DNA of 64,000 bases from an archaeon GW2011_AR15 (GCA_000830295.1 CP010425.1:320001-384000), one strand, 5' to 3'. Positions 3,588-16,774 are shown, counted from the first letter of the stretch. Numbers and translations are program-made. Notes: generated by a model not told the origin, from the letters alone.

Positions 3588-3626
3588 CAATTGCTTTAAG
3601 AATAAGCTAATTTTCTCTGCCTCTTT

Positions 3627-4250
3627 ATGGGTGGGGAAGATATTGCAGGCGTGCTGAAGTTTTATTATCATTCCCCGCGCTCAGAACTGCCTATTCCTGA
3701 TTTTGCGGGAGATAGGAACGACAAAGGGTCAAAAAAAACAGAGCCGCATTTTCTTCCTGATAATATGGTAGCTGAGAATTTTCTCAAGACATGCTACCCC
3801 AGGAACATAAAAGCAGTAATTGACATGGATCTGCCATATCTCTTCTGGGTGACAAGGAAACAGGAGGAAAACTCAAAAATCAAGAATTCACAGGTTGTGA
3901 TAGGCTATCTGGAAGTCGCCTCCCACGAGATGAGAGAGGATACTGTCTCCGGAACTGAACTTACCGGAAAACCGCATCACACCATATACGGAAAAGGACA
4001 CCTCTATGCTTTTGACAACGCAATAGAAACAAGGGAAATATTCGGGAAGGTGTTGACAAGGGTTGATTTCACTCACAGGTTCCATGTGAGCCATGCGCAG
4101 GCAGAGAGGATGCTGGACCATTTCTCAGAGCTTGATGATATTGTGCATCAATGCGCAGATGAAATAGCTAGATTAGATGTGAAAGGCTACACATGTTTCC
4201 CTGAGATATGCCCTGTAAAGCAGGGCTGCGCACTCTATCATAATCTTTAA
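3627..4250 (+). CDS. hypothetical protein
   Basis: 207-aa ORF, C-terminal Cys cluster (C...CFPEICPVKQGC). Confidence 0.65.
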   Translation: MGGEDIAGVLKFYYHSPRSELPIPDFAGDRNDKGSKKTEPHFLPDNMVAENFLKTCYPRNIKAVIDMDLPYLFWVTRKQEENSKIKNSQVVIGYLEVASHEMREDTVSGTELTGKPHHTIYGKGHLYAFDNAIETREIFGKVLTRVDFTHRFHVSHAQAERMLDHFSELDDIVHQCADEIARLDVKGYTCFPEICPVKQGCALYHNL

Positions 4251-9730: not shown

Positions 9731-10189
9731 ATGAAATACGCTCACAACATCGAGATGCGGGTTTTTTCTAAAGAGGGTGAGGATGACGAGGAAAAGATAA
9801 TTGGAAAAGTGCATGAACTCTTCCCTTTTGATTTTGAAAAAGAGAAGGTTGAATTTAAGTCAAAAATATCTTATGGTTTTGAGGACAACAAGATAAAAGT
9901 TATCACTGTTTTCGTGAAAAAAGAAAGGCACACAAAGAAAGTGCTGAAGAACCTCATGTCCCGGCTTAGTGAAGATCAGAAAGAGATGCTATTGCGGCAG
10001 ATGGATAGCAGGCTGGACAATGGACTGCATTTCTACATGAGGCTGGATAAAGAGAAACTGCTGAACGGAGAATACCGGATAACAGACTCGGGGAACTGCT
10101 TCTGGCTCAAGATATGCATTGCTGCTTACCCGCATAAAAGGGAAACTGCAGAGAAAATTGTGAGAGCGATGCTGAAGCACCAAAGTTAA
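9731..10189 (+). CDS. archaeal DUF54-like putative RNA-binding protein
   Basis: SRLD...FYMRLDKEKL and C-terminal I-x-AYP pattern. Confidence 0.7.
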   Translation: MKYAHNIEMRVFSKEGEDDEEKIIGKVHELFPFDFEKEKVEFKSKISYGFEDNKIKVITVFVKKERHTKKVLKNLMSRLSEDQKEMLLRQMDSRLDNGLHFYMRLDKEKLLNGEYRITDSGNCFWLKICIAAYPHKRETAEKIVRAMLKHQS

Positions 10190-10279: not shown

Positions 10280-10885
10280 GTGGTCAAAATGGGAAGCTTT
10301 GACCAGCTTGCAGATACATTAGAACATAGGAAAGCATATTATGGGGAGGACCAGCTTGCGCTGGTAGACCGCATCATAGCGACAACCCAGAATCATTTCA
10401 GCAGGATAAAAGACAGTGAAGAGCCGTCTTATATGGCTGCAAACCTGTATGCAGTAATGGCCCACGTCTACCTTGTTCTTGAAGGGCTGTCAGGGATAAA
10501 AACAGAATTCTCGCAATCCGTCCATCCGAGGCTGGAAAAGCTGGAAGGCCTGCTTGGGCAGTATGTGCAGGATGAAAAAAGATATAGAGAGATTTCCGGA
10601 GAAGGGCTGGACTTTACTCCTGTAGAAGACCTTGGGTCTGTGCATGTCCCGCACTGGAAAGGCTACAAGGGGCTGGAGGATGAAAAAAAGGCTTTTGCGG
10701 AATATTTCTCTGATGTTTCATCCAGGGTATCATCTCTTATGAAAGAACATACATGCATAGGGGAATACCTTAGCCAGAGGAAAGAGAAGCTCTGGAATAT
10801 CGGCTATGTTATGAACAGGCTAAAAGGATTTAAAACCGATGGCCAGAAGGCCGTGCGGAGACTCGAAACAGCGCTGCAGCGCTGA
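10280..10885 (+). CDS. hypothetical helical protein
   Basis: 201-aa ORF with upstream TATA (ttttatata); no motif recognised. Confidence 0.6.
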   Translation: MVKMGSFDQLADTLEHRKAYYGEDQLALVDRIIATTQNHFSRIKDSEEPSYMAANLYAVMAHVYLVLEGLSGIKTEFSQSVHPRLEKLEGLLGQYVQDEKRYREISGEGLDFTPVEDLGSVHVPHWKGYKGLEDEKKAFAEYFSDVSSRVSSLMKEHTCIGEYLSQRKEKLWNIGYVMNRLKGFKTDGQKAVRRLETALQR

Positions 10886-10910
10886 TTTTCTTTTTATTTT
10901 TTCAGATATA

Positions 10911-10935
10911 TTTATTAATAATAAGTTTATACCTT
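10911..10935 (+). promoter_or_regulatory. TATA-like promoter of leader unit 1, with shared aataagtt(t)atac motif
   Basis: tttattaa 23-30 nt before ATG 10941; downstream aataagtttatac closely matches aataagttatac in promoter 2. Confidence 0.55.
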
Positions 10936-10940
10936 GCATT

Positions 10941-10973
10941 ATGAGCGCTGGTGATTCACGCTGGACTTTGTAA
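10941..10973 (+). CDS. putative Trp-containing leader peptide 1, MSAGDSRWTL (not in ORF track)
   Basis: atg agc gct ggt gat tca cgc tgg act ttg taa at the leaderless-start distance from a TATA; shares G-x-S-R-W with peptide 2. Confidence 0.55.
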   Translation: MSAGDSRWTL

Positions 10974-11062
10974 TTTCTTGCTTAGGTTAACCTGTAATAA
11001 AGATCTGCTGTTCGGATGCTGGCGATATTGTAAAATGTATTCTGAAAAATTTAGTTGTTTTA

Positions 11063-11081
11063 TTAAGGGGCTTCCCCTTAA
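11063..11081 (+). terminator. perfect hairpin ttaagggg-ctt-ccccttaa, possible terminator/processing signal of leader unit 1
   Basis: 8-bp perfect inverted repeat; a second cccctt at 11085-11090 offers an alternative pairing; pyrimidine-rich tail. Confidence 0.45.
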
Positions 11082-11132
11082 AATCCCCTTTCAATTTAGC
11101 TTCAGCTAGGATATATTCTGTAACATATATTT

Positions 11133-11157
11133 CGGAAACTATATAAATAAGTTATAC
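11133..11157 (+). promoter_or_regulatory. BRE-TATA promoter of leader unit 2 / tRNA-Trp operon
   Basis: cggaaac-tatataaa, TATA 24-31 nt before ATG 11171. Confidence 0.7.
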
Positions 11158-11170
11158 TTTCCCTTTCCGC

Positions 11171-11215
11171 ATGAGAAACACAAAAGGCGGTTCACGTTGG
11201 CGTTCTTTCAATTAA
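11171..11215 (+). CDS. putative Trp-containing leader peptide 2, MRNTKGGSRWRSFN (not in ORF track)
   Basis: 14 codons with Trp at codon 10, ATG at expected TSS, 75 nt upstream of tRNA-Trp. Confidence 0.6.
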   Translation: MRNTKGGSRWRSFN

Positions 11216-11290
11216 GTTAGATAATATTACATTAAATTTTTCTGCGGGCTCTTGGTGGCAGCCCTGAGTTCATTGTTTTAAACCAGATAC

Positions 11291-11361
11291 GGGGCTGTAG
11301 TTTAACGGGAAAATTCTTGGCTCCAGACCAAAAGATTCAGGTTCGACTCCTGATAGCCCCA
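11291..11361 (+). tRNA. tRNA-Trp (anticodon CCA), intronless, CCA end not encoded
   Basis: Acceptor GGGGCTG/TAGCCCC+A73, D stem GTTT/AAAT, anticodon arm CTTGG-CTCCAGA-CCAAA (C27.A43 mismatch), T arm TCAGG-TTCGACT-CCTGA. Confidence 0.92.
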
Positions 11362-11383
11362 TCAAAAACCTTAGGAGGCAAAA

Positions 11384-12064
11384 ATGAAAAAACAAAATGA
11401 ACCTGAAAACGAAGATGAGATATTAAGAAGGCTTGGCCTGGATCCTGTAAAAGATTACCAGCTGATACATGACACTCTGAGCCTGTATTATGCAAAGCCA
11501 AGGCCTGAAAAAATTAGGATTATAGAGTTCCGGCCAAGTGACTTAACAGACAGGATGAAACAGGGCATCATCGATATAGGACTGGTGGCGTTCGGCCCCG
11601 GCATGACTCCTGAAGAAATTATAGAACATGTTATGCCAACTGACAGAGTCTATATGGGATTCAAAGGAACAAGGGCAATTGGATTTGCAACTGCCAATAT
11701 TCAGGAAAACGCCGTTGATTTTGTCGGCGCTGCTGTTGAACCCCAATACCAGGGGGATGGCCTTTACAATGAGTTTGTGATGAGGCGCGTCAGCCTCGCA
11801 TTCGAGCATGGCAAAAACACAGTAAAGCTGAGGACTCAGAACCCTGTTGTCTATCTCGGTGTGACAAGGTCTCTTGACAATCTTGCGGAAATAGGCGCAA
11901 TAAATAGCTACACAGAGAAAAGGGAGCATGTGAAAGGGATGTATGGCAGGATGCTGACTGAAAAAAGGCCTCTTTCAAACATCGGGGAGATTAACCGTAT
12001 CTTTGATGTTCTGGATTATGAGAAAGGAGATACGTTCTCTTTGGAATTCAGGATGGTGAGATGA
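11384..12064 (+). CDS. GNAT-family N-acetyltransferase
   Basis: Motif A AAVEPQYQGDGLY; LRTQNP; AGGAGG SD 22 nt after the tRNA end region. Confidence 0.75.
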   Translation: MKKQNEPENEDEILRRLGLDPVKDYQLIHDTLSLYYAKPRPEKIRIIEFRPSDLTDRMKQGIIDIGLVAFGPGMTPEEIIEHVMPTDRVYMGFKGTRAIGFATANIQENAVDFVGAAVEPQYQGDGLYNEFVMRRVSLAFEHGKNTVKLRTQNPVVYLGVTRSLDNLAEIGAINSYTEKREHVKGMYGRMLTEKRPLSNIGEINRIFDVLDYEKGDTFSLEFRMVR

Positions 12065-12065
12065 A

Positions 12066-12773
12066 ATGAGGATCTCAAAAACCGGTTCAGGAAATCCGAA
12101 AGTTGCCTTTGTTGCCTGTGTCCATGGAGATGAAAAAATAGGTGAGAAAGCAATAGAAAAGCTGAAGAACATCCGTCTGGCAGGGGGGACTCTTTTTTTT
12201 GTCCTGGCGAATGAGAAAGCAGCGCAGGAAAACAAGAGATTCACTGAATCAGACCTTAACAGGGTGTTTCCGGGCAATCCGGAGGGAGATCATGAGGAAA
12301 AGCTTGCGCATCAACTACTGCATGAGCTAAGGCAAGCGGATGTTGTGATAGATATACATTCAACAGAAGCTGACACAGAGGATTTCATAATTCTCACAAA
12401 AAAAGAGCAATTCAGAATTGCTGAAAAAGTTCCAATTGAGAAATGTGTATTCATGGAAAAGTCTATTGCCAAAGGAAAGGCATTGATTGATCATGTAAAT
12501 CTCGGGATTTCCATTGAGTTCAATAAAGATAGGGGAGATGTAAGCGGAATCCTGAGACAGATTCTCATCAATCTCGGCATGGTTAAGGGAAGAAAAAGGA
12601 TTGCCAGTCAGGTGGGCTACAGTGTCTACGGCATCATTGAAAAAAAAGATTATAGCGGCCTGCTTGTCAATTTCAGGGAAACAGAAATCAACGGGGAATT
12701 GTTTTTTCCCCTTTTTTATGGCTCAAAAAATTATGAAAATGTTGCCTGCCTGAAAGCAAGGAGGGTGAGATGA
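12066..12773 (+). CDS. succinylglutamate desuccinylase/aspartoacylase-family (M14) Zn hydrolase
   Basis: HGDE, DLNRVFPG, IDIHS, catalytic SIEF. Confidence 0.88.
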   Translation: MRISKTGSGNPKVAFVACVHGDEKIGEKAIEKLKNIRLAGGTLFFVLANEKAAQENKRFTESDLNRVFPGNPEGDHEEKLAHQLLHELRQADVVIDIHSTEADTEDFIILTKKEQFRIAEKVPIEKCVFMEKSIAKGKALIDHVNLGISIEFNKDRGDVSGILRQILINLGMVKGRKRIASQVGYSVYGIIEKKDYSGLLVNFRETEINGELFFPLFYGSKNYENVACLKARRVR

Positions 12774-13318
12774 TTAATGCTTCACTGCCTGCTGTAAAAA
12801 ACCTGGATATGCTCCGGAATATTGTAGCTTCAGGCCTTGGGCTCTTGCTCTCATTTTTCATATTCAGGGAGCATTTTGTAATCGTGCTTTCCATACTTGT
12901 CTCTATCCTTGTGATGCTTCACAAGAGATACATCGGCATTGTGCTGGGGATAGATGTCTGCATGGTGTTTGTTATGCTTTCAGCTTCAAGATACGGCGCA
13001 TTTGCAGGCGCAGCTATAGGCGGAATATCATTTCTTGGAGGGATGCTTGCCTCCCTGGAATTCAGCAAAAGCCCGATGGTGACTTTCTACGGCACGTTTT
13101 TTTATATCATCCTTGGGCTGGCTTATTCCCTGATGCCAACCGGCATAATATATGCCCTGCCTCTGCTTCATATCCTGATAGCAGGCCTTCTGTTTTCGAT
13201 TGGCGCTTTTTTTGTCGGTGCCCCTCTCCAGTTCCTGATGAAATATGCAGCAACAAATATAATCACAAATTTATTATTCATAAGAATATTCGAAAGCTTG
13301 CTGAGGCTGATGTTCTGA
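12770..13318 (+). CDS. membrane protein, ECF S-component-like
   Basis: 182 aa, ~6 TM, YGAFAGAAIG resembles the S-component G-x-x-x-G-A-x-x-G helix; ATGA overlap with the upstream gene. Confidence 0.5.
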   Translation: MINASLPAVKNLDMLRNIVASGLGLLLSFFIFREHFVIVLSILVSILVMLHKRYIGIVLGIDVCMVFVMLSASRYGAFAGAAIGGISFLGGMLASLEFSKSPMVTFYGTFFYIILGLAYSLMPTGIIYALPLLHILIAGLLFSIGAFFVGAPLQFLMKYAATNIITNLLFIRIFESLLRLMF

Positions 13319-13962
13319 TGATAAGGCAGAAAATAAGGGAAATACTGGAAGAGATAGGGAATGCAGAGCTTGTCACAGTCACAAAATCAAGGAGCATCGA
13401 GGAAATTATAGAAGCAATCGAGGCAGGAGCAAGAATAATCGGGGAAAACAGGGTTGATGAAGCGAGAAAAAAATACGGCATGCTGAAGGATTGCCTGAAA
13501 AAATACAATGTGGGATACCATTTCATAGGCCATCTCCAGTCGAACAAGGTGAACAAGGCAGTGGGGTTTTTTGACCTGATACAGTCAGTCGATTCTGTAA
13601 AGCTGGCTGAAAAAATAAACAAACGGGCAGAAGAGCTGGAGATAGTCCAGGACATTCTCGTGCAGGTGAACATAGGGGAAGAAGAGCAGAAATACGGGGT
13701 ACCTCCTGGCGAGGTAAGCAGCTTCATAGGGAGCCTGTCCGGCCTGGGAAACATAAGGATAAAAGGGCTGATGTGCATTGCCCCTTACTCAGAAAACCCG
13801 GAAGACGCAAGGCCGTATTTCAGCAGGATGAAAAAGATATACCGCACTTTTGATTTTGAATATCTGTCAATGGGCATGACAAATGATTACCGGATAGCAC
13901 TGGAAGAAGGCTCAAATATGGTGAGAATAGGGACAGCCATCTTCGGCGAGAGAAAATATTAA
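13318..13962 (+). CDS. yggS: YggS/PLPBP family PLP-binding protein
   Basis: VTK (PLP Lys), GENRV, HFIGHLQSNK, QVNIG.E..KYG, GLMCI, LSMGMTND, MVRIGTAIFG. Confidence 0.95.
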   Translation: MIRQKIREILEEIGNAELVTVTKSRSIEEIIEAIEAGARIIGENRVDEARKKYGMLKDCLKKYNVGYHFIGHLQSNKVNKAVGFFDLIQSVDSVKLAEKINKRAEELEIVQDILVQVNIGEEEQKYGVPPGEVSSFIGSLSGLGNIRIKGLMCIAPYSENPEDARPYFSRMKKIYRTFDFEYLSMGMTNDYRIALEEGSNMVRIGTAIFGERKY

Positions 13963-13989
13963 ATAGTATGCATGATAAAGTGAGAAACA

Positions 13990-15120
13990 ATGACAAAAAA
14001 TGATTTCATAGTCACACCATGGAGCGTTAAGGGAGATATAGACTATGACAAATTAGTAAAGCAGTTCGGGACAAAAAAGCTGGATGAAAAACTGCTGAAA
14101 GAGCTTAAAAGCATTACAGGAGGAACCCACCATTACCTCAGAAGAAAGATATTCTACTCCCACATGTATTTAGATGAGGTATTAAAAGATTACAGGAAAG
14201 ACAATAAATTCTATCTTTACACAGGAAGGGCTCCAAGCGGGCCCGTGCATCTGGGGCACATGATCCCATGGATATTCACGAAATGGCTTCAGGACAACTT
14301 TGATGCCCATCTGCTGTTCCAGATTCCTGATGAGGAAAAATTCCTTTTCAAGAAAGACCTGACTCTGGAAGAGACAAGGAAGTGGGCTTACGACAACATA
14401 CTGGACATAATCGCTGTAGGGTTTGACCCAAAGAAAACCCACATATTTTTGGATACTGAGTACGCCGGCCATATGTATAAGCATGCTGTCCAGGTAGCCA
14501 AGAAGATAAATTTCTCAACAATAAAGTCAACATTCGGGTTTGACAACGACAAGAACATCGGGGAGATTTTCTATACTGCAATGCAGTCTGTTCCTGCAAT
14601 ACTGCCAAGCGTCCTTGAAGGAAAGAAAACCCGCGTTTTAATTCCATGCGCAATTGACCAGGATGTGCATTTCAGGCTGACAAGGGATGTCGCTGAATCA
14701 CTTGGGTATTACAAGCCCGCAACAATATTGTGCCGGTTCCTGCCCGGGCTGCAGGGTATGAGTGGAGAGGGCAAGATGTCCTCCTCCGTCGAGAGCACTG
14801 CAATATACACAACTGATGATGCCAAGACAGTAAAAAATAAAATTCTCAAGTATGCATTCTCAGGAGGCCGTGATACTTTAGAAGAGCACAGAAAGCACGG
14901 CGGCAACCCTGAAGTAGATGTTTCATACCAGTGGCTAACATTCTTTGAGGAGGACGATGCAAAGCTTGAGAAAATCTATAAAGATTACAAGTCAGGAAAG
15001 CTGCTTTCAGGAGAGCTGAAGATGATTCTTGTAGACAAGCTGAACAGTTTCCTTGCTGAGCACCAGAAGAGAAGGAAGGAAGCAGAGAAAATAATTGAGA
15101 AATTTATGCTGCGGGACTAG
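13990..15120 (+). CDS. trpS: tryptophan--tRNA ligase (archaeal/eukaryotic type)
   Basis: VTPW, YLYTGRAPSG, HLGH, AIDQD, KMSSS, AFSGG, SGELK. Confidence 0.97.
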   Translation: MTKNDFIVTPWSVKGDIDYDKLVKQFGTKKLDEKLLKELKSITGGTHHYLRRKIFYSHMYLDEVLKDYRKDNKFYLYTGRAPSGPVHLGHMIPWIFTKWLQDNFDAHLLFQIPDEEKFLFKKDLTLEETRKWAYDNILDIIAVGFDPKKTHIFLDTEYAGHMYKHAVQVAKKINFSTIKSTFGFDNDKNIGEIFYTAMQSVPAILPSVLEGKKTRVLIPCAIDQDVHFRLTRDVAESLGYYKPATILCRFLPGLQGMSGEGKMSSSVESTAIYTTDDAKTVKNKILKYAFSGGRDTLEEHRKHGGNPEVDVSYQWLTFFEEDDAKLEKIYKDYKSGKLLSGELKMILVDKLNSFLAEHQKRRKEAEKIIEKFMLRD

Positions 15121-16052
15121 GCTGCTTTCAGTTTCCTGACCATTTCTATTGACCACAGCCTGAAGAATGCTGCTACAGGGACAAATATTACGGATATTGC
15201 ATATATAATCAGCAGGATGACAACCGCTGCGTATGTAGCAGTCACAATTATGGCTGCTGTCTGGGATGCCATCAAAAGCAGGAAATAAATCCCCAGGCCT
15301 ATAAGGGCAAATGGTATCAAGAGGATTATTGCCACGAATATGGCCAGGATAATTGTTGCTATGTTAAGCGCAATGGAAAGCCCGACTTTTATAAGCCAGT
15401 AAAGGCCTATCTCCCCTTTCCTGTCCCTGATTTTCTTAATAACGTGGTGCCATGCCCTTGCAAACCTGTAATTTTTCAGGTACATTACCGGCATTACAAA
15501 GTCATAGACTATGAACCAGAATATGATAAGTGCCAGGAAGAATATGAAGAATCCGAGGAACATCGGCACAAACAGCCAGTAGTTGAAACTTGATAATGTG
15601 CCGTTGAGGAGGGCTATTATGACCGGTGACAATATAACGGCAATGCCTGCAATGGTTATCATGCCTGTAATCAGCTTGACGAAAAATATGTTCAGGCCCA
15701 ATGAATGGTTTGCCCTGAAGCTTTTCCTTATCTTTATGCTTTTATGGAGCACCCCTTCAATGAACATGAACGTGAAGACGCTGTTTAGATAGGTGAAAAA
15801 GAGCATGAGCACGAAAAAGGCAATAAAGGCTATCCCAAGCAGGAGGCCGTATCTGGTTATAAAACTGGCAAAATTCACATCAGGCGACTCTGAGGAGGTA
15901 CTATAGCTATTTCCTCCTGAGAACCCGTTCCCGGGCCTTCCGCCAAACAGGTTAATGAACCCCATGCGGAGCCAGTATGCCCTGTCTATCGGAAAAAATA
16001 GTTTCTTTGTTTTGCTGAAAGCAGAATTCAGAGTATCAATTGCCACAGTCAT
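15117..16052 (-). CDS. conserved archaeal multi-pass membrane protein
   Basis: 311 aa with ~6 long hydrophobic helices. Confidence 0.7.
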   Translation of the reverse strand: MTVAIDTLNSAFSKTKKLFFPIDRAYWLRMGFINLFGGRPGNGFSGGNSYSTSSESPDVNFASFITRYGLLLGIAFIAFFVLMLFFTYLNSVFTFMFIEGVLHKSIKIRKSFRANHSLGLNIFFVKLITGMITIAGIAVILSPVIIALLNGTLSSFNYWLFVPMFLGFFIFFLALIIFWFIVYDFVMPVMYLKNYRFARAWHHVIKKIRDRKGEIGLYWLIKVGLSIALNIATIILAIFVAIILLIPFALIGLGIYFLLLMASQTAAIIVTATYAAVVILLIIYAISVIFVPVAAFFRLWSIEMVRKLKAA

Positions 16053-16084
16053 GGGATATTTTTGGGCGTCCTAGTATAAAAATA

Positions 16085-16774
16085 TTATTGTTTCAGGCAG
16101 AAATTTACAGTGCTTTCGGCAAAAATCTTCATTGTATCATATATTTCAAGTTTATCATGCTCAGGCATCAGCAGCTGCAGGTCTGTGCACGCAAGAATCA
16201 CCGCATCTGCTTTTCCTTCAAATTTATTTATCATAGTTACAAGCTTTCTTTTATCTTTTTCAGCATGCCTGCTCAGGACAATGTTGTTTATAATCTCTCC
16301 GAGCATCGCCTGGTCTTTATCATGCGGAACAATCTGTGATATGCCTTCTTTTTTGAGGGCTGTCTCGTATAACCCGGATTTAAGGGCTGTCCTTGTTGCC
16401 AGCAGCCCAACATTACGGAACTTCTTCTCCCTGAGGAATTTTGCAGTCTCTTCCACTATGCTCAAGACCGGGATTTTGACTGCTTTCCTTATATCTTCTA
16501 TAAATATGTGAAGGGAATTGCATGGCATGACAATAAAATCCGCTCCCCCTCTCTCGAGCTTTTTCGCTCCGGCAACAAGATAGGGTATGTATCTTTCCTC
16601 TCCCTTTGAGCTCCTTATCAGGTCTTCTTCTATATCATATCTCAGGGGGACATTCCATATTAGTATCGGCGGCCGCTGCTGCTTATTCTTCTTATAGCTG
16701 CCAAACACAATCTCAAGGTAGAATTCCGCTGTTGTTTCAGGCCCTAATCCCCCTATAACACCTATTGTTTTCAT
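16085..16774 (-). CDS. aspartate/glutamate racemase family protein
   Basis: IGVIGGLGP, MPCNS and LACTD two-cysteine catalytic motifs. Confidence 0.9.
   Translation of the reverse strand: MKTIGVIGGLGPETTAEFYLEIVFGSYKKNKQQRPPILIWNVPLRYDIEEDLIRSSKGEERYIPYLVAGAKKLERGGADFIVMPCNSLHIFIEDIRKAVKIPVLSIVEETAKFLREKKFRNVGLLATRTALKSGLYETALKKEGISQIVPHDKDQAMLGEIINNIVLSRHAEKDKRKLVTMINKFEGKADAVILACTDLQLLMPEHDKLEIYDTMKIFAESTVNFCLKQ

Follow-up and report, generated by a model that had tools for sequence, protein, structure and literature searches.

The window, i.e., the 64,000-nucleotide (nt) stretch CP010425.1:320001-384000 analyzed here, comes from the 1.16-Mb genome of the archaeon GW2011_AR15 (designated G000, with other G and L codes standing for the compared genomes and loci), and contains a 498-nt gap between the end of an upstream open reading frame (ORF) at 10885 and the start of the first downstream gene at 11384. 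This gap holds two copies of an element that we call the S/L unit, in which a mini-ORF with a Trp codon (S) is overlapped by a longer ORF in its +1 frame (L), and which is followed by tRNA-Trp, four coupled genes, and the tryptophan--tRNA ligase gene trpS. A first-pass annotation of the same sequence had read the ~500-bp gap as two promoter-plus-mini-ORF units encoding twin leader peptides, with the TATA spacing of leaderless transcripts, leading to tRNA-Trp, an AGGAGG, four tightly coupled genes, and trpS 27 nt further on. All of these features were recovered, and both mini-ORFs stand; what had been missed is the overlapping frame L and, since L holds the strongest coding signal, the twin leader peptides are better described as a leader with two reading frames. 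The leader region has the following features.

10911-10918, + strand: TATA-like box of unit 1, TTTATTAA, its 3' end 22 nt ahead of the S1 ATG
10941-10973, + strand: S1, predicted leaderless short ORF MSAGDSRWTL, Trp codon at 10962-10964
10951-11109, + strand: L1, the +1 frame of S1, first codon GTG, from the three-frame view
11061-11088, + strand: hairpin-containing 28-nt repeat between the units, core AAGGGGCTTCCCCTT then AAAATCCCC
11142-11149, + strand: TATA-like box of unit 2, TATAAATA, its 3' end 21 nt ahead of the S2 ATG
11171-11215, + strand: S2, short ORF MRNTKGGSRWRSFN, Trp codon at 11198-11200
11187-11267, + strand: L2, the +1 frame of S2, ..KLDNITLNFSAGSWWQP, stop TGA at 11265-11267
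11291-11361, + strand: tRNA-Trp (CCA), intron-less (ARAGORN; Rfam 59.6 bits)
11373-11378, + strand: Shine-Dalgarno AGGAGG of the first operon gene (16S rRNA 3' end ..GGATCACCTCCT)

The block shared by the two S ORFs reads GGT GAT TCA CGC TGG in one unit and GGC GGT TCA CGT TGG in the other, and the synonymous differences reported at first pass (ggt/ggc, cgc/cgt) are real. The conserved stretch of L1 extends to 11025 (..NKDLLFGCWR, Trp codon at 11020-11022); in the window, where L1 reads MIHAGLCNFLLRLTCNKDLLFGCWR, the usual TAG stop is lost and the frame extends to 11109. L2 shares homology with L ends from many families that read ..FLDxxIFKISxGFW[RC]-stop, and has 22 open codons counted from the S2 Trp codon, including two Trp codons at 11253-11258; it lacks any ATG, GTG, or TTG, with GCG at the usual start position, and ends 23 nt ahead of tRNA-Trp, the sole tRNA-Trp gene in the genome according to ARAGORN. 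Within the genus, DNA conservation extends to the promoter region of unit 2 (query positions 227-281), where G003 and G004 show 85-90% identity. A profile of the motif matched only the two units of the window within the 1.16-Mb genome (E ~5e-4 each), the next match having an E of 2.1. Only 44 of the 1025 intergenic ATG ORFs of 8-35 amino acids (aa) in this genome place a W among their final four residues. A crude screen upstream of the other 38 predicted tRNA genes of this genome revealed no comparable leader for other amino acids. As a separate observation, the 28-nt repeat has one more exact copy in the genome, after a T-rich stretch (G000:C1:7727-7754, minus strand), and G004 carries a related, longer hairpin element at the equivalent position (L022 ~3590-3680); this repeat might be a terminator or a protein-binding site.

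We then compared this locus across relatives, using several anchors. Within the family (20 genomes), a DNA query with tRNA-Trp matched nothing beyond the copy in the window at E up to 1e-5, and tRNA-Trp genes were instead located with a covariance model built from four tRNA-Trp genes and confirmed with ARAGORN. The full arrangement was found upstream of an intron-less tRNA-Trp in G000, G003, G004, G008, and G015, and as a fragment at a contig start in G009, with S peptides such as MTIKSGCPWRT, MQEKSDLGWHL, MQRVDCRWH, MKSGDCRWQY, and ..KKGDCRWQELHFS. A degenerate pattern of the L1 end yielded 12 matches in metagenomes, two of them real (the new locus L050, with two complete S/L units and tRNA-Trp, and L051, which matches G003), while the other 10 had no nearby tRNA-Trp and lay mostly within apparent coding sequence; in the genome collection it yielded seven matches, of which six were real (five known loci and the new L076) and the seventh a chance match inside a bacterial gene. 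An L1 peptide profile run against 401 genomes of the order led to a further family (f21, with G039, G332, and G291). Anchoring on tryptophan--tRNA ligase (TrpRS) in 16 other families gave a single S unit, MISDCPWQN in G069, ahead of a full trp operon and trpS; in none of these families did a tRNA-Trp lie within 7 kb upstream of TrpRS.

Finally, a sequence-only model was built from the 40 nt around the S TGG of 14 units, i.e., with no information on the L end or on downstream genes. Run against 151 genomes of the order with E up to 0.05 accepted, this model matched 58. Among the best 26 new loci, which were inspected after leaving out known loci and one unpublished genome, 21 displayed the full S/L architecture, and the other five were chance matches (three within genes, two without an S ORF). 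Genomes flagged as unpublished support none of the claims made here. From a 151-genome sample of the phylum, which overlaps the order sample, the best two loci were inspected and added G409, in which tRNA-Trp comes after the unit, and G467, which belongs to a different order. Overall, 35 S/L units were measured, 14 of them first-found and 21 model-found, and their sources number 32 genomes or contigs, i.e., the unit recurs in 31 measured genomes or contigs beyond the window, and two further units were seen outside this set. The 34 sources span at least 24 families, labeled Candidatus Woesearchaeota.

Across these 35 units, S follows the pattern M-x(1-8)-[SVG]-[DG]-C/S-[RPL]-W-x(0-8)-stop, i.e., ~8-15 codons with a single Trp codon in the context [S/V/G]-[D/G]-C-[R/P/L]-W and a stop 0-8 codons past it. 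The S-frame TGG lies in an ATG-started ORF in 35/35 units, with the TGG itself being required by the locating motif. From this TGG, the +1 frame stays open for a median of 24 codons in the first-found units and 22 in the model-found ones, against 6 and 7 codons for the +2 frame, and it is the longer of the two in all 35 units. L ends as Trp-x(0-3)-stop, with Trp thus among its last four residues, in 27/35 units (15/21 model-found). A TATA-like box matching 7-8 of 8 positions was detected for 32/35 units, with its 3' end 20-24 nt from the ATG in 27 of these 32 (the script broke ties towards 22 nt), and the four units with longer box-to-ATG gaps have shorter S ORFs, such that the box-to-TGG distance stays at ~42-51 nt. 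This spacing fits leaderless transcripts, as first proposed for the window, with S predicted to start at or within a few bases of the transcript start.

Two forms of L can be distinguished. In form B, which includes most units and both units of the window, L has ~20 codons and closes on a conserved peptide, with one, two, or three Trp codons shortly before the stop. The stop of the proximal ORF is placed 19-34 nt ahead of tRNA-Trp in the seven tRNA-linked loci examined, and elsewhere a few tens of bases ahead of the Shine-Dalgarno of the next gene. In form A (five units), L has no Trp codon and no conserved sequence, and is kept open to overlap with the next start codon: in G028 (59 codons) it stops inside an ATGA at the trpE start, in G084 (22 codons) 4 nt into trpE, in G069 (69 codons) just beyond the trpE ATG, in G106 (42 codons) 14 nt into trpS, and in G087 (36 codons) within an ATGA shared with the start of a second S-type ORF (..GGCLWR..). 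For these units, the S UGG would be the sole Trp sensor, with L apparently serving to convey ribosomes to the start codon that follows. We also observed that the second S-type ORF of G087, MTEDTRGGCLWRPCR.. (L116 ~1490-1700), has a GGAGG ahead of it and resembles a cascade of two sensor ORFs.

The substitution patterns differ on the two sides of the TGG. When the five loci recovered via tRNA-Trp are compared, differences between codons in the L1 frame were 31 synonymous for 44 non-synonymous, versus 5/63 and 12/58 in the other frames, and they fell 34/31/59 by codon position. KDLLFGCWR is protein-identical in G000 and G008 despite five synonymous base differences, the end KDLLFGCW is common to 10 genomes, and L1 otherwise ends as ..LIAAGTSKLVLFSSYNFKDLLFGCWR-stop in G008, ..VVVRGVHNLVFSSYNSKDLLYGCWR-stop in G003, ..FISFKCFLFGCWH-stop in G015, and ..KKDILFGGWQY-stop in G004. 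With 10 sequences the L1 counts were 152/133 versus 21/276 and 29/249, five of these having come from codon- or protein-aware searches. A more widespread L end, ..N-F-(F)-L-D-x-x-I-F-K-I-S-x-G-[FLY]-W-[RC]-stop, is exemplified by G061 (..NFLLDINIFKISVGFWR), G064 (..NFLDITIFKVSQGLWC), and G164 (..FFLDITIFKISKGLWR); in the 15 L ends found via S alone, the conserved Gly is written as GGT, GGA, GGG, or GGC and the conserved Ser as TCT, TCA, or AGT, and the other two frames are crowded with stops. These patterns indicate that L evolves as a coding sequence. Ahead of the S TGG, the preceding codon is Arg in 20 units (CGC 10, CGG 9, CGT 1), Pro in 10 (CCG 5, CCC 5), CTT in four, and GGC in one, and the second codon before it is TGT in 17 and TGC in 11. 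Since these wobble changes are silent in S and change residues in L, selection appears to act on the S frame as far as the TGG, and on the L frame afterwards.

The genes downstream link the unit to tryptophan. The first-pass annotation had named the recurrence of Trp-codon mini-ORFs beside Trp genes in relatives as its own test, and this is what we found: tRNA-Trp, trp biosynthesis genes, or trpS lie downstream in 11/11 first-found sources, and a Trp gene occurs within 1.5 kb in 10/21 loci found by the 40-nt model alone, namely trpE (G054, G084, G028, and G119), trpB (G117), a TrpB-like enzyme (G040), a TrpD-family enzyme (G112), TrpRS (G106 and G007), and tRNA-Trp (G157). The order of genes varies between loci. 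In G004, the leader precedes tRNA-Trp, trpE-G-D-C-F-B-A, YggS, and TrpRS; in G015, tRNA-Trp, TrpB (TIGR00263, 584 bits), an HD protein, and TrpRS; in G009, tRNA-Trp, a 97-aa ORF, and TrpB; and in both G003 and G008, tRNA-Trp, small genes of no known function, YggS, and TrpRS. The units of L076 stand directly before trpE with no tRNA, those of G039 precede a 121-aa gene, tRNA-Trp, a radical-SAM-like gene, and TrpRS, and those of G332 a 142-aa ORF led by a Shine-Dalgarno (no Pfam family), tRNA-Trp, a 188-aa ORF, and the contig end, while G291 has one unit and then TrpRS with no tRNA between. No intron was seen in any tRNA-Trp gene linked to a leader.

Elsewhere, the gene immediately behind the leader is a class I/II aminotransferase (G133), an Asp/Glu-type racemase (G045), NIF3 (G089), or a PPDK_N-like gene (G061 and G087), with TrpRS located 2.7 kb downstream on the same strand in G061. 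Small Cys-rich proteins of 81-121 aa without a Pfam family come first in three genomes of three families (G101, G164, and G064; L107 1669-2034, L132 1683-1928, and L113 1120-1380, minus strand), and two of them share a ..DGG.A.GG..(R/K)SIP.G.. stretch; these may be unrecognized members of a Trp regulon. Separately, a lone trpB (G015, L024 1618-2781; G009, L010 448-1623) or TrpB-like gene (G040, L119 1621-2862) stands behind the leader without trpA, which suggests indole salvage in otherwise reduced genomes.

In the window itself, the genes behind tRNA-Trp are as follows.

11384-12064, + strand: GNAT-fold acetyltransferase-like gene, 226 aa (Pfam E 0.022, weak; rimI E 4e-4)
12066-12773, + strand: AstE/AspA-family deacylase, 235 aa (PF24827, E 3.7e-18)
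12770-13318, + strand: membrane protein, 182 aa, without a Pfam or NCBIfam family
13318-13962, + strand: YggS-family pyridoxal phosphate-binding protein (TIGR00044, 176 bits)
13990-15120, + strand: trpS, tryptophan--tRNA ligase, 376 aa (NF008927, 529 bits, cut-off 478), 27 nt past the preceding gene

Among the labels given at first pass, TrpRS, YggS, and AstE hold; GNAT is weak in Pfam and is backed by the Atlas (0.94, template-modeling score (TM) 0.67 to GNAT clusters), and the 182-aa membrane protein may be an energy-coupling factor (ECF) S-component-like transporter, a structural lead from modeled folds (Atlas TM 0.58-0.64). YggS also adjoins trpS in G003, G004, G008, and G007. None of the seven trp biosynthesis genes was found in the window's genome by tblastn with the G004 proteins, so that the three genes following tRNA-Trp occupy the slot where the same-genus G004 holds trpEGDCFBA, and tight control of tRNA-Trp, TrpRS, and salvage is plausible in this Trp auxotroph. 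The suggestion that these genes form a Trp supply module fared unevenly: in the comparison with 10 other loci, no homologue was found of the GNAT-like, AstE, or membrane gene, which are thus not conserved as a set, whereas an AstE/AspA deacylase, 38% identical over 239 aa to the window's (E 2e-54), stands directly behind the S/L leader of G047, from a different family, i.e., AstE-type deacylases follow units in two families. The alternative suggestion, in which the peptides are substrates of the GNAT and hydrolase enzymes, has to be abandoned, as units occur nearly everywhere without these enzymes.

Several further observations concern the surroundings of the leader. The window TrpRS is 80% identical to residues 231-598 of the longer G004 TrpRS; the TrpRS of relatives have ~590-600 aa (L021 5694-7484, L022 11315-13111, L023 1850-3652, and L024 3548-5317), with a ~230-aa N-terminal extension that weakly matches a B3_4 domain (E 1e-4 to 1e-8). 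This extension is missing from the window TrpRS, and tblastn of the genome returned no separate copy. Directly upstream of the leader, a 201-aa ORF (10280-10885) matched no Pfam or NCBIfam family even at permissive thresholds, and a PF01877 ('RNA binding') gene is found upstream of the leader in at least eight loci from several families (G000, at 9731-10189 of the window, G003, G004, L050, L076, G007, G054, and G106). DUF7544 and Asp/Glu-racemase genes converge on trpS from the opposite strand (15117-16774, minus strand; likewise L087 3663-6910), and G008 has the same arrangement.

Taken together, we consider it probable (roughly 70%) that the S/L unit works in cis as a translated leader, signaling to the genes behind it how much charged tRNA-Trp is available. 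Conservation, coding signatures, frame openness, stop-start overlaps, and Trp-gene linkage all support this reading. When Trp-tRNA is ample, ribosomes would complete S and leave, the remaining leader would stay untranslated, and the downstream genes would be little expressed. When Trp-tRNA is scarce, ribosomes would wait at the S UGG and translation would go on in L, where they would come to rest on the L Trp codons just ahead of the tRNA or gene, or else carry translation to the next start codon, with either outcome raising downstream expression. In the window, the presumed targets would be tRNA-Trp, the three salvage or uptake candidates, YggS, and TrpRS.

Several points weigh against this reading. 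L has no Trp near its end in 8/35 units, and distal units (unit 1 of the window, G291, and G069) have another TATA-like box before the gene, i.e., such units may be separate transcription units. No S/L unit was found in the 600 nt upstream of tRNA-Trp in the same-family genomes G002, G010, G016, and G018. (As a side observation, tRNA-Trp carries an intron of ~31-50 nt in three of these four genomes: L029 1522-1645, L032 3970-4092, minus strand, and L033 3190-3310, minus strand.) Only the five-sequence L1 count (31/44) is free of search bias, the synonymous excess of the divergent L ends is weak (108/750 versus 56/803 and 77/742 for 15 ends), and related genomes are not independent samples. Translation of S and L in the cell, the direction of regulation, and the step controlled are all things we infer from sequence. 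All 20 sequencing runs listed for the locus are of DNA. Finally, a T-tract terminator does not appear to be a general feature of these leaders: T-runs of at least 5 occur within 40 nt after the L stop in 14/35 units, which is not enriched over the L interior (13/35; upstream control, 6/35), with strong single T-runs in G015 (T10), G003, and G004 (T7 in both).

RNA structure was equally unremarkable. Seven of eight leaders folded no better than shuffled sequences (z-scores +1.35, +0.90, +0.05, +0.48, +0.52, +0.32, and -0.33), the sole exception being unit 2 of G004 (-2.33), and small hairpins near Trp or stop codons, found in ~4/7 proximal regions, are not conserved. A hairpin-based attenuator is therefore unlikely for these leaders, given that 7/8 fold like shuffled sequence and T-runs are not enriched, in agreement with the first-pass annotation, which had reported no classical terminator/antiterminator pair. 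A permissive Rfam search of 10500-11800 returned the tRNA and three chance-level matches (E ≥ 4.7), with no T-box match; a C/D-box or other small RNA was rejected accordingly (SNORD111, E 4.7), and resemblance to a tRNA fragment or integration site (15 nt, 80% like the T-arm) was set aside in view of the coding nature of the motif and its linkage to Trp genes. In units that precede a tRNA, the output would have to act on RNA synthesis or survival, with a ribosome held at the L end, or traveling through L, protecting read-through. Because no RNA switch structure is predicted, the likely route in tRNA-linked units is that the leading ribosome keeps the termination factor FttA/aCPSF1 off the polymerase. 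The window's genome encodes FttA/aCPSF1 (865.6 bits, cut-off 580), the ribosome and FttA have been proposed to be mutually exclusive on the archaeal polymerase (PMC11616081), and archaeal termination efficiency is described as set by U-tracts together with aCPSF1 (PMC8716108).

How translation passes from S to L is a distinct question, for which we tentatively favor a +1 shift at the starved UGG over a separate GTG/TTG start, at somewhat less than even odds. The fuller version of this scheme, a starvation-operated frame switch in which the UGG slips +1 onto GGN and L then couples to trpE or trpS or parks before tRNA-Trp, is possible and has to be held at least as cautiously. The frame pattern, the form A units, and the conservation of the site at the nucleotide level argue for a shift, as do four units in which L cannot begin at the usual position (GCG in unit 2 of G000, unit 2 of G015, and G040; a TAG between GTG and TGG in unit 1 of G004) and is nonetheless open with a conserved Trp-containing end. 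Nine of the 35 units have P-site codons able to re-pair (CCC 5 and CTT 4, followed by T), and a GTGAT complementary to the 16S 3' end stands 3 nt ahead of the P-site codon. On the other hand, 25/35 P-site codons (CGN 20, CCG 5) cannot re-pair (GGC accounts for one unit), and the first L codon is GTG in 26, TTG in six, and GCG in three units, i.e., in 32/35 the downstream frame has a possible start of its own. Hungry codons are reported to promote +1 shifts, their natural role being described as unclear (PMC5009743).

The strongest competitor, which is conceivable and which we hold for somewhat doubtful, takes these 32 GTG and TTG codons at face value: S would start at the 5'-terminal ATG and L independently at its own codon, with L a leader peptide of the ordinary kind, on which ribosomes would stall under starvation at the Trp codons close to the stop and so allow read-through, S an accessory or competing ORF, and no frameshift. 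Besides the valid start codons, this explanation would account for the lack of the Ser codon AGC, which would destroy the GTG, among the displayed unit sequences, for a second TATA-like hexamer in the window (10926-10931) ~20 nt before the L1 GTG, and for plain ATG ORFs that end in Trp without an S partner, which also speak against a shift (unit 2 of G003, MLTNNNLNIESWC; unit 2 of G004, ..NVNWCWWL; unit 2 of L076, ..SLWTWC; G039; and unit 2 of G332). It does not account for the four start-less units, and the five Trp-less L of form A would sense nothing. In addition, the internal GTG would lie ~7-25 nt from the 5' end with no Shine-Dalgarno ahead, and stalling at the S UGG, only 9 nt beyond the GTG, would be expected to obstruct this start, which would give the wrong sign for a biosynthetic operon.

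It is much less likely that S and L encode small peptides acting in trans (e.g., a ~25-aa hydrophobic peptide, or one like peTrpL of Sinorhizobium) instead of cis regulators. Conservation of L well past its Trp codon (..FLDxxIFKISxGFW.., KDLLFGCW) and the distal units with their own promoter followed by another TATA-like box would suit such peptides, and a leader peptide acting in trans has been reported (PMC7298713). A trans-acting product would need no positional coupling, however, yet the stops are placed 19-34 nt ahead of tRNA-Trp in seven loci and overlap the next start in five units, and the bridging L of G084, G106, G028, and G069 keep only their openness. Weakest of all, and very improbable, is that a regulator, or tRNA-Trp itself, binds the motif ..GTGATTGYCSNTGGC.. 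in RNA or DNA (T-box- or TRAP-like), the ORFs being incidental: near the S TGG, all three codon positions of the core are conserved with no frame excess in synonymous counts (16/136, 15/105, 37/111), UGG is complementary to the CCA anticodon, and at least eight loci have the PF01877 'RNA binding' gene upstream, but the Rfam and folding results show no such structured element, and a binding site would not explain why S starts with ATG, where the stops are placed, why the frame is open in 35/35 units, or why substitutions downstream are of the codon type.

A cis-acting leader of this kind would place tRNA-Trp, TrpRS, biosynthesis, and salvage genes under one signal, by means of a compact element present in at least 24 families of uncultured, small, groundwater archaea of the DPANN type. 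As the regulon can be read from the motif, it predicts Trp-related roles for AstE-type deacylases, lone TrpB, the aminotransferase, and the small Cys-rich proteins, and possibly for the S-component-like membrane protein as well. It also raises the question of how archaea couple translation to transcription termination. If the frame switch holds, the unit would represent a natural regulatory use of hungry-codon +1 frameshifting, i.e., a sense-codon counterpart of release-factor-2 autoregulation, and a feedback loop on charged tRNA-Trp that is widespread in one archaeal lineage. For archaeal trp genes, the literature covered here describes protein regulators, TrpY and the activator TK0271 (PMC6737238). 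We found no prior description of an archaeal Trp leader peptide, or of 'Woesearchaeota' together with 'leader peptide', in the full-text literature, subscription-only papers being outside this search.

Sensing of amino acids by ribosomes on leader ORFs is a textbook bacterial mechanism. In trpL attenuation, terminator and antiterminator hairpins overlap the leader ORF. The S/L unit shares with this type a short ORF with cognate codons before trp genes, the proposed use of the ribosome as a sensor of charged tRNA and, in some units, tandem Trp codons (WW in L2 of the window, WCWW in G004). Unlike trpL, it is found in an archaeal host, is apparently leaderless, has two overlapping frames with mostly a single Trp codon per ORF and no predicted terminator/antiterminator hairpins, would also control tRNA-Trp and TrpRS, and encodes an L peptide conserved past the Trp codon; the comparison with the enterobacterial TrpL made at first pass is thus an analogy only. 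TnaC of the E. coli tna operon senses free tryptophan and induces a catabolic operon. Its conserved Trp-containing peptide directly before the stop, with a parked ribosome possibly excluding a termination factor, recalls form B, although the logic here must be induction on shortage and the likeness drawn is one of description. In Firmicutes, T-box leaders and TRAP control trp and trpS genes via a structured RNA or a protein sensor. As proposed here, one signal, uncharged or scarce tRNA-Trp, serves biosynthesis, uptake, and synthetase, T-box control of a Trp uptake gene having been described (PMC9382623); unlike these systems, the elements reported here have no Rfam match and consist of predicted translated ORFs.

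Programmed +1 frameshifting, as in release factor 2 and antizyme, offers the parallel of a presumably slow A-site codon at the start of an open +1 frame, at a site conserved at the nucleotide level, and with P-site codons able to re-pair in 9/35 units. Here, in contrast, decoding would be slowed at a sense codon, for want of the tRNA that reads it, and the shifted product is predicted from the sequence only. In mycobacteria, leaderless polycysteine short ORFs form the first cistron of cognate amino-acid operons (the 'ribulon', bioRxiv 10.1101/834739). There, the stalled ribosome opens a duplex that hides the next ribosome-binding site, whereas no stable duplex is predicted for the S/L unit, whose output would include a tRNA gene (in the window, the next element is this tRNA in place of a ribosome-binding site) and whose single sensory codon sits at the junction of two frames. 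The two systems are nonetheless alike in that the putative sensory ORFs of the S/L unit are apparently leaderless too, and would place several loci under one ribosome-based signal.

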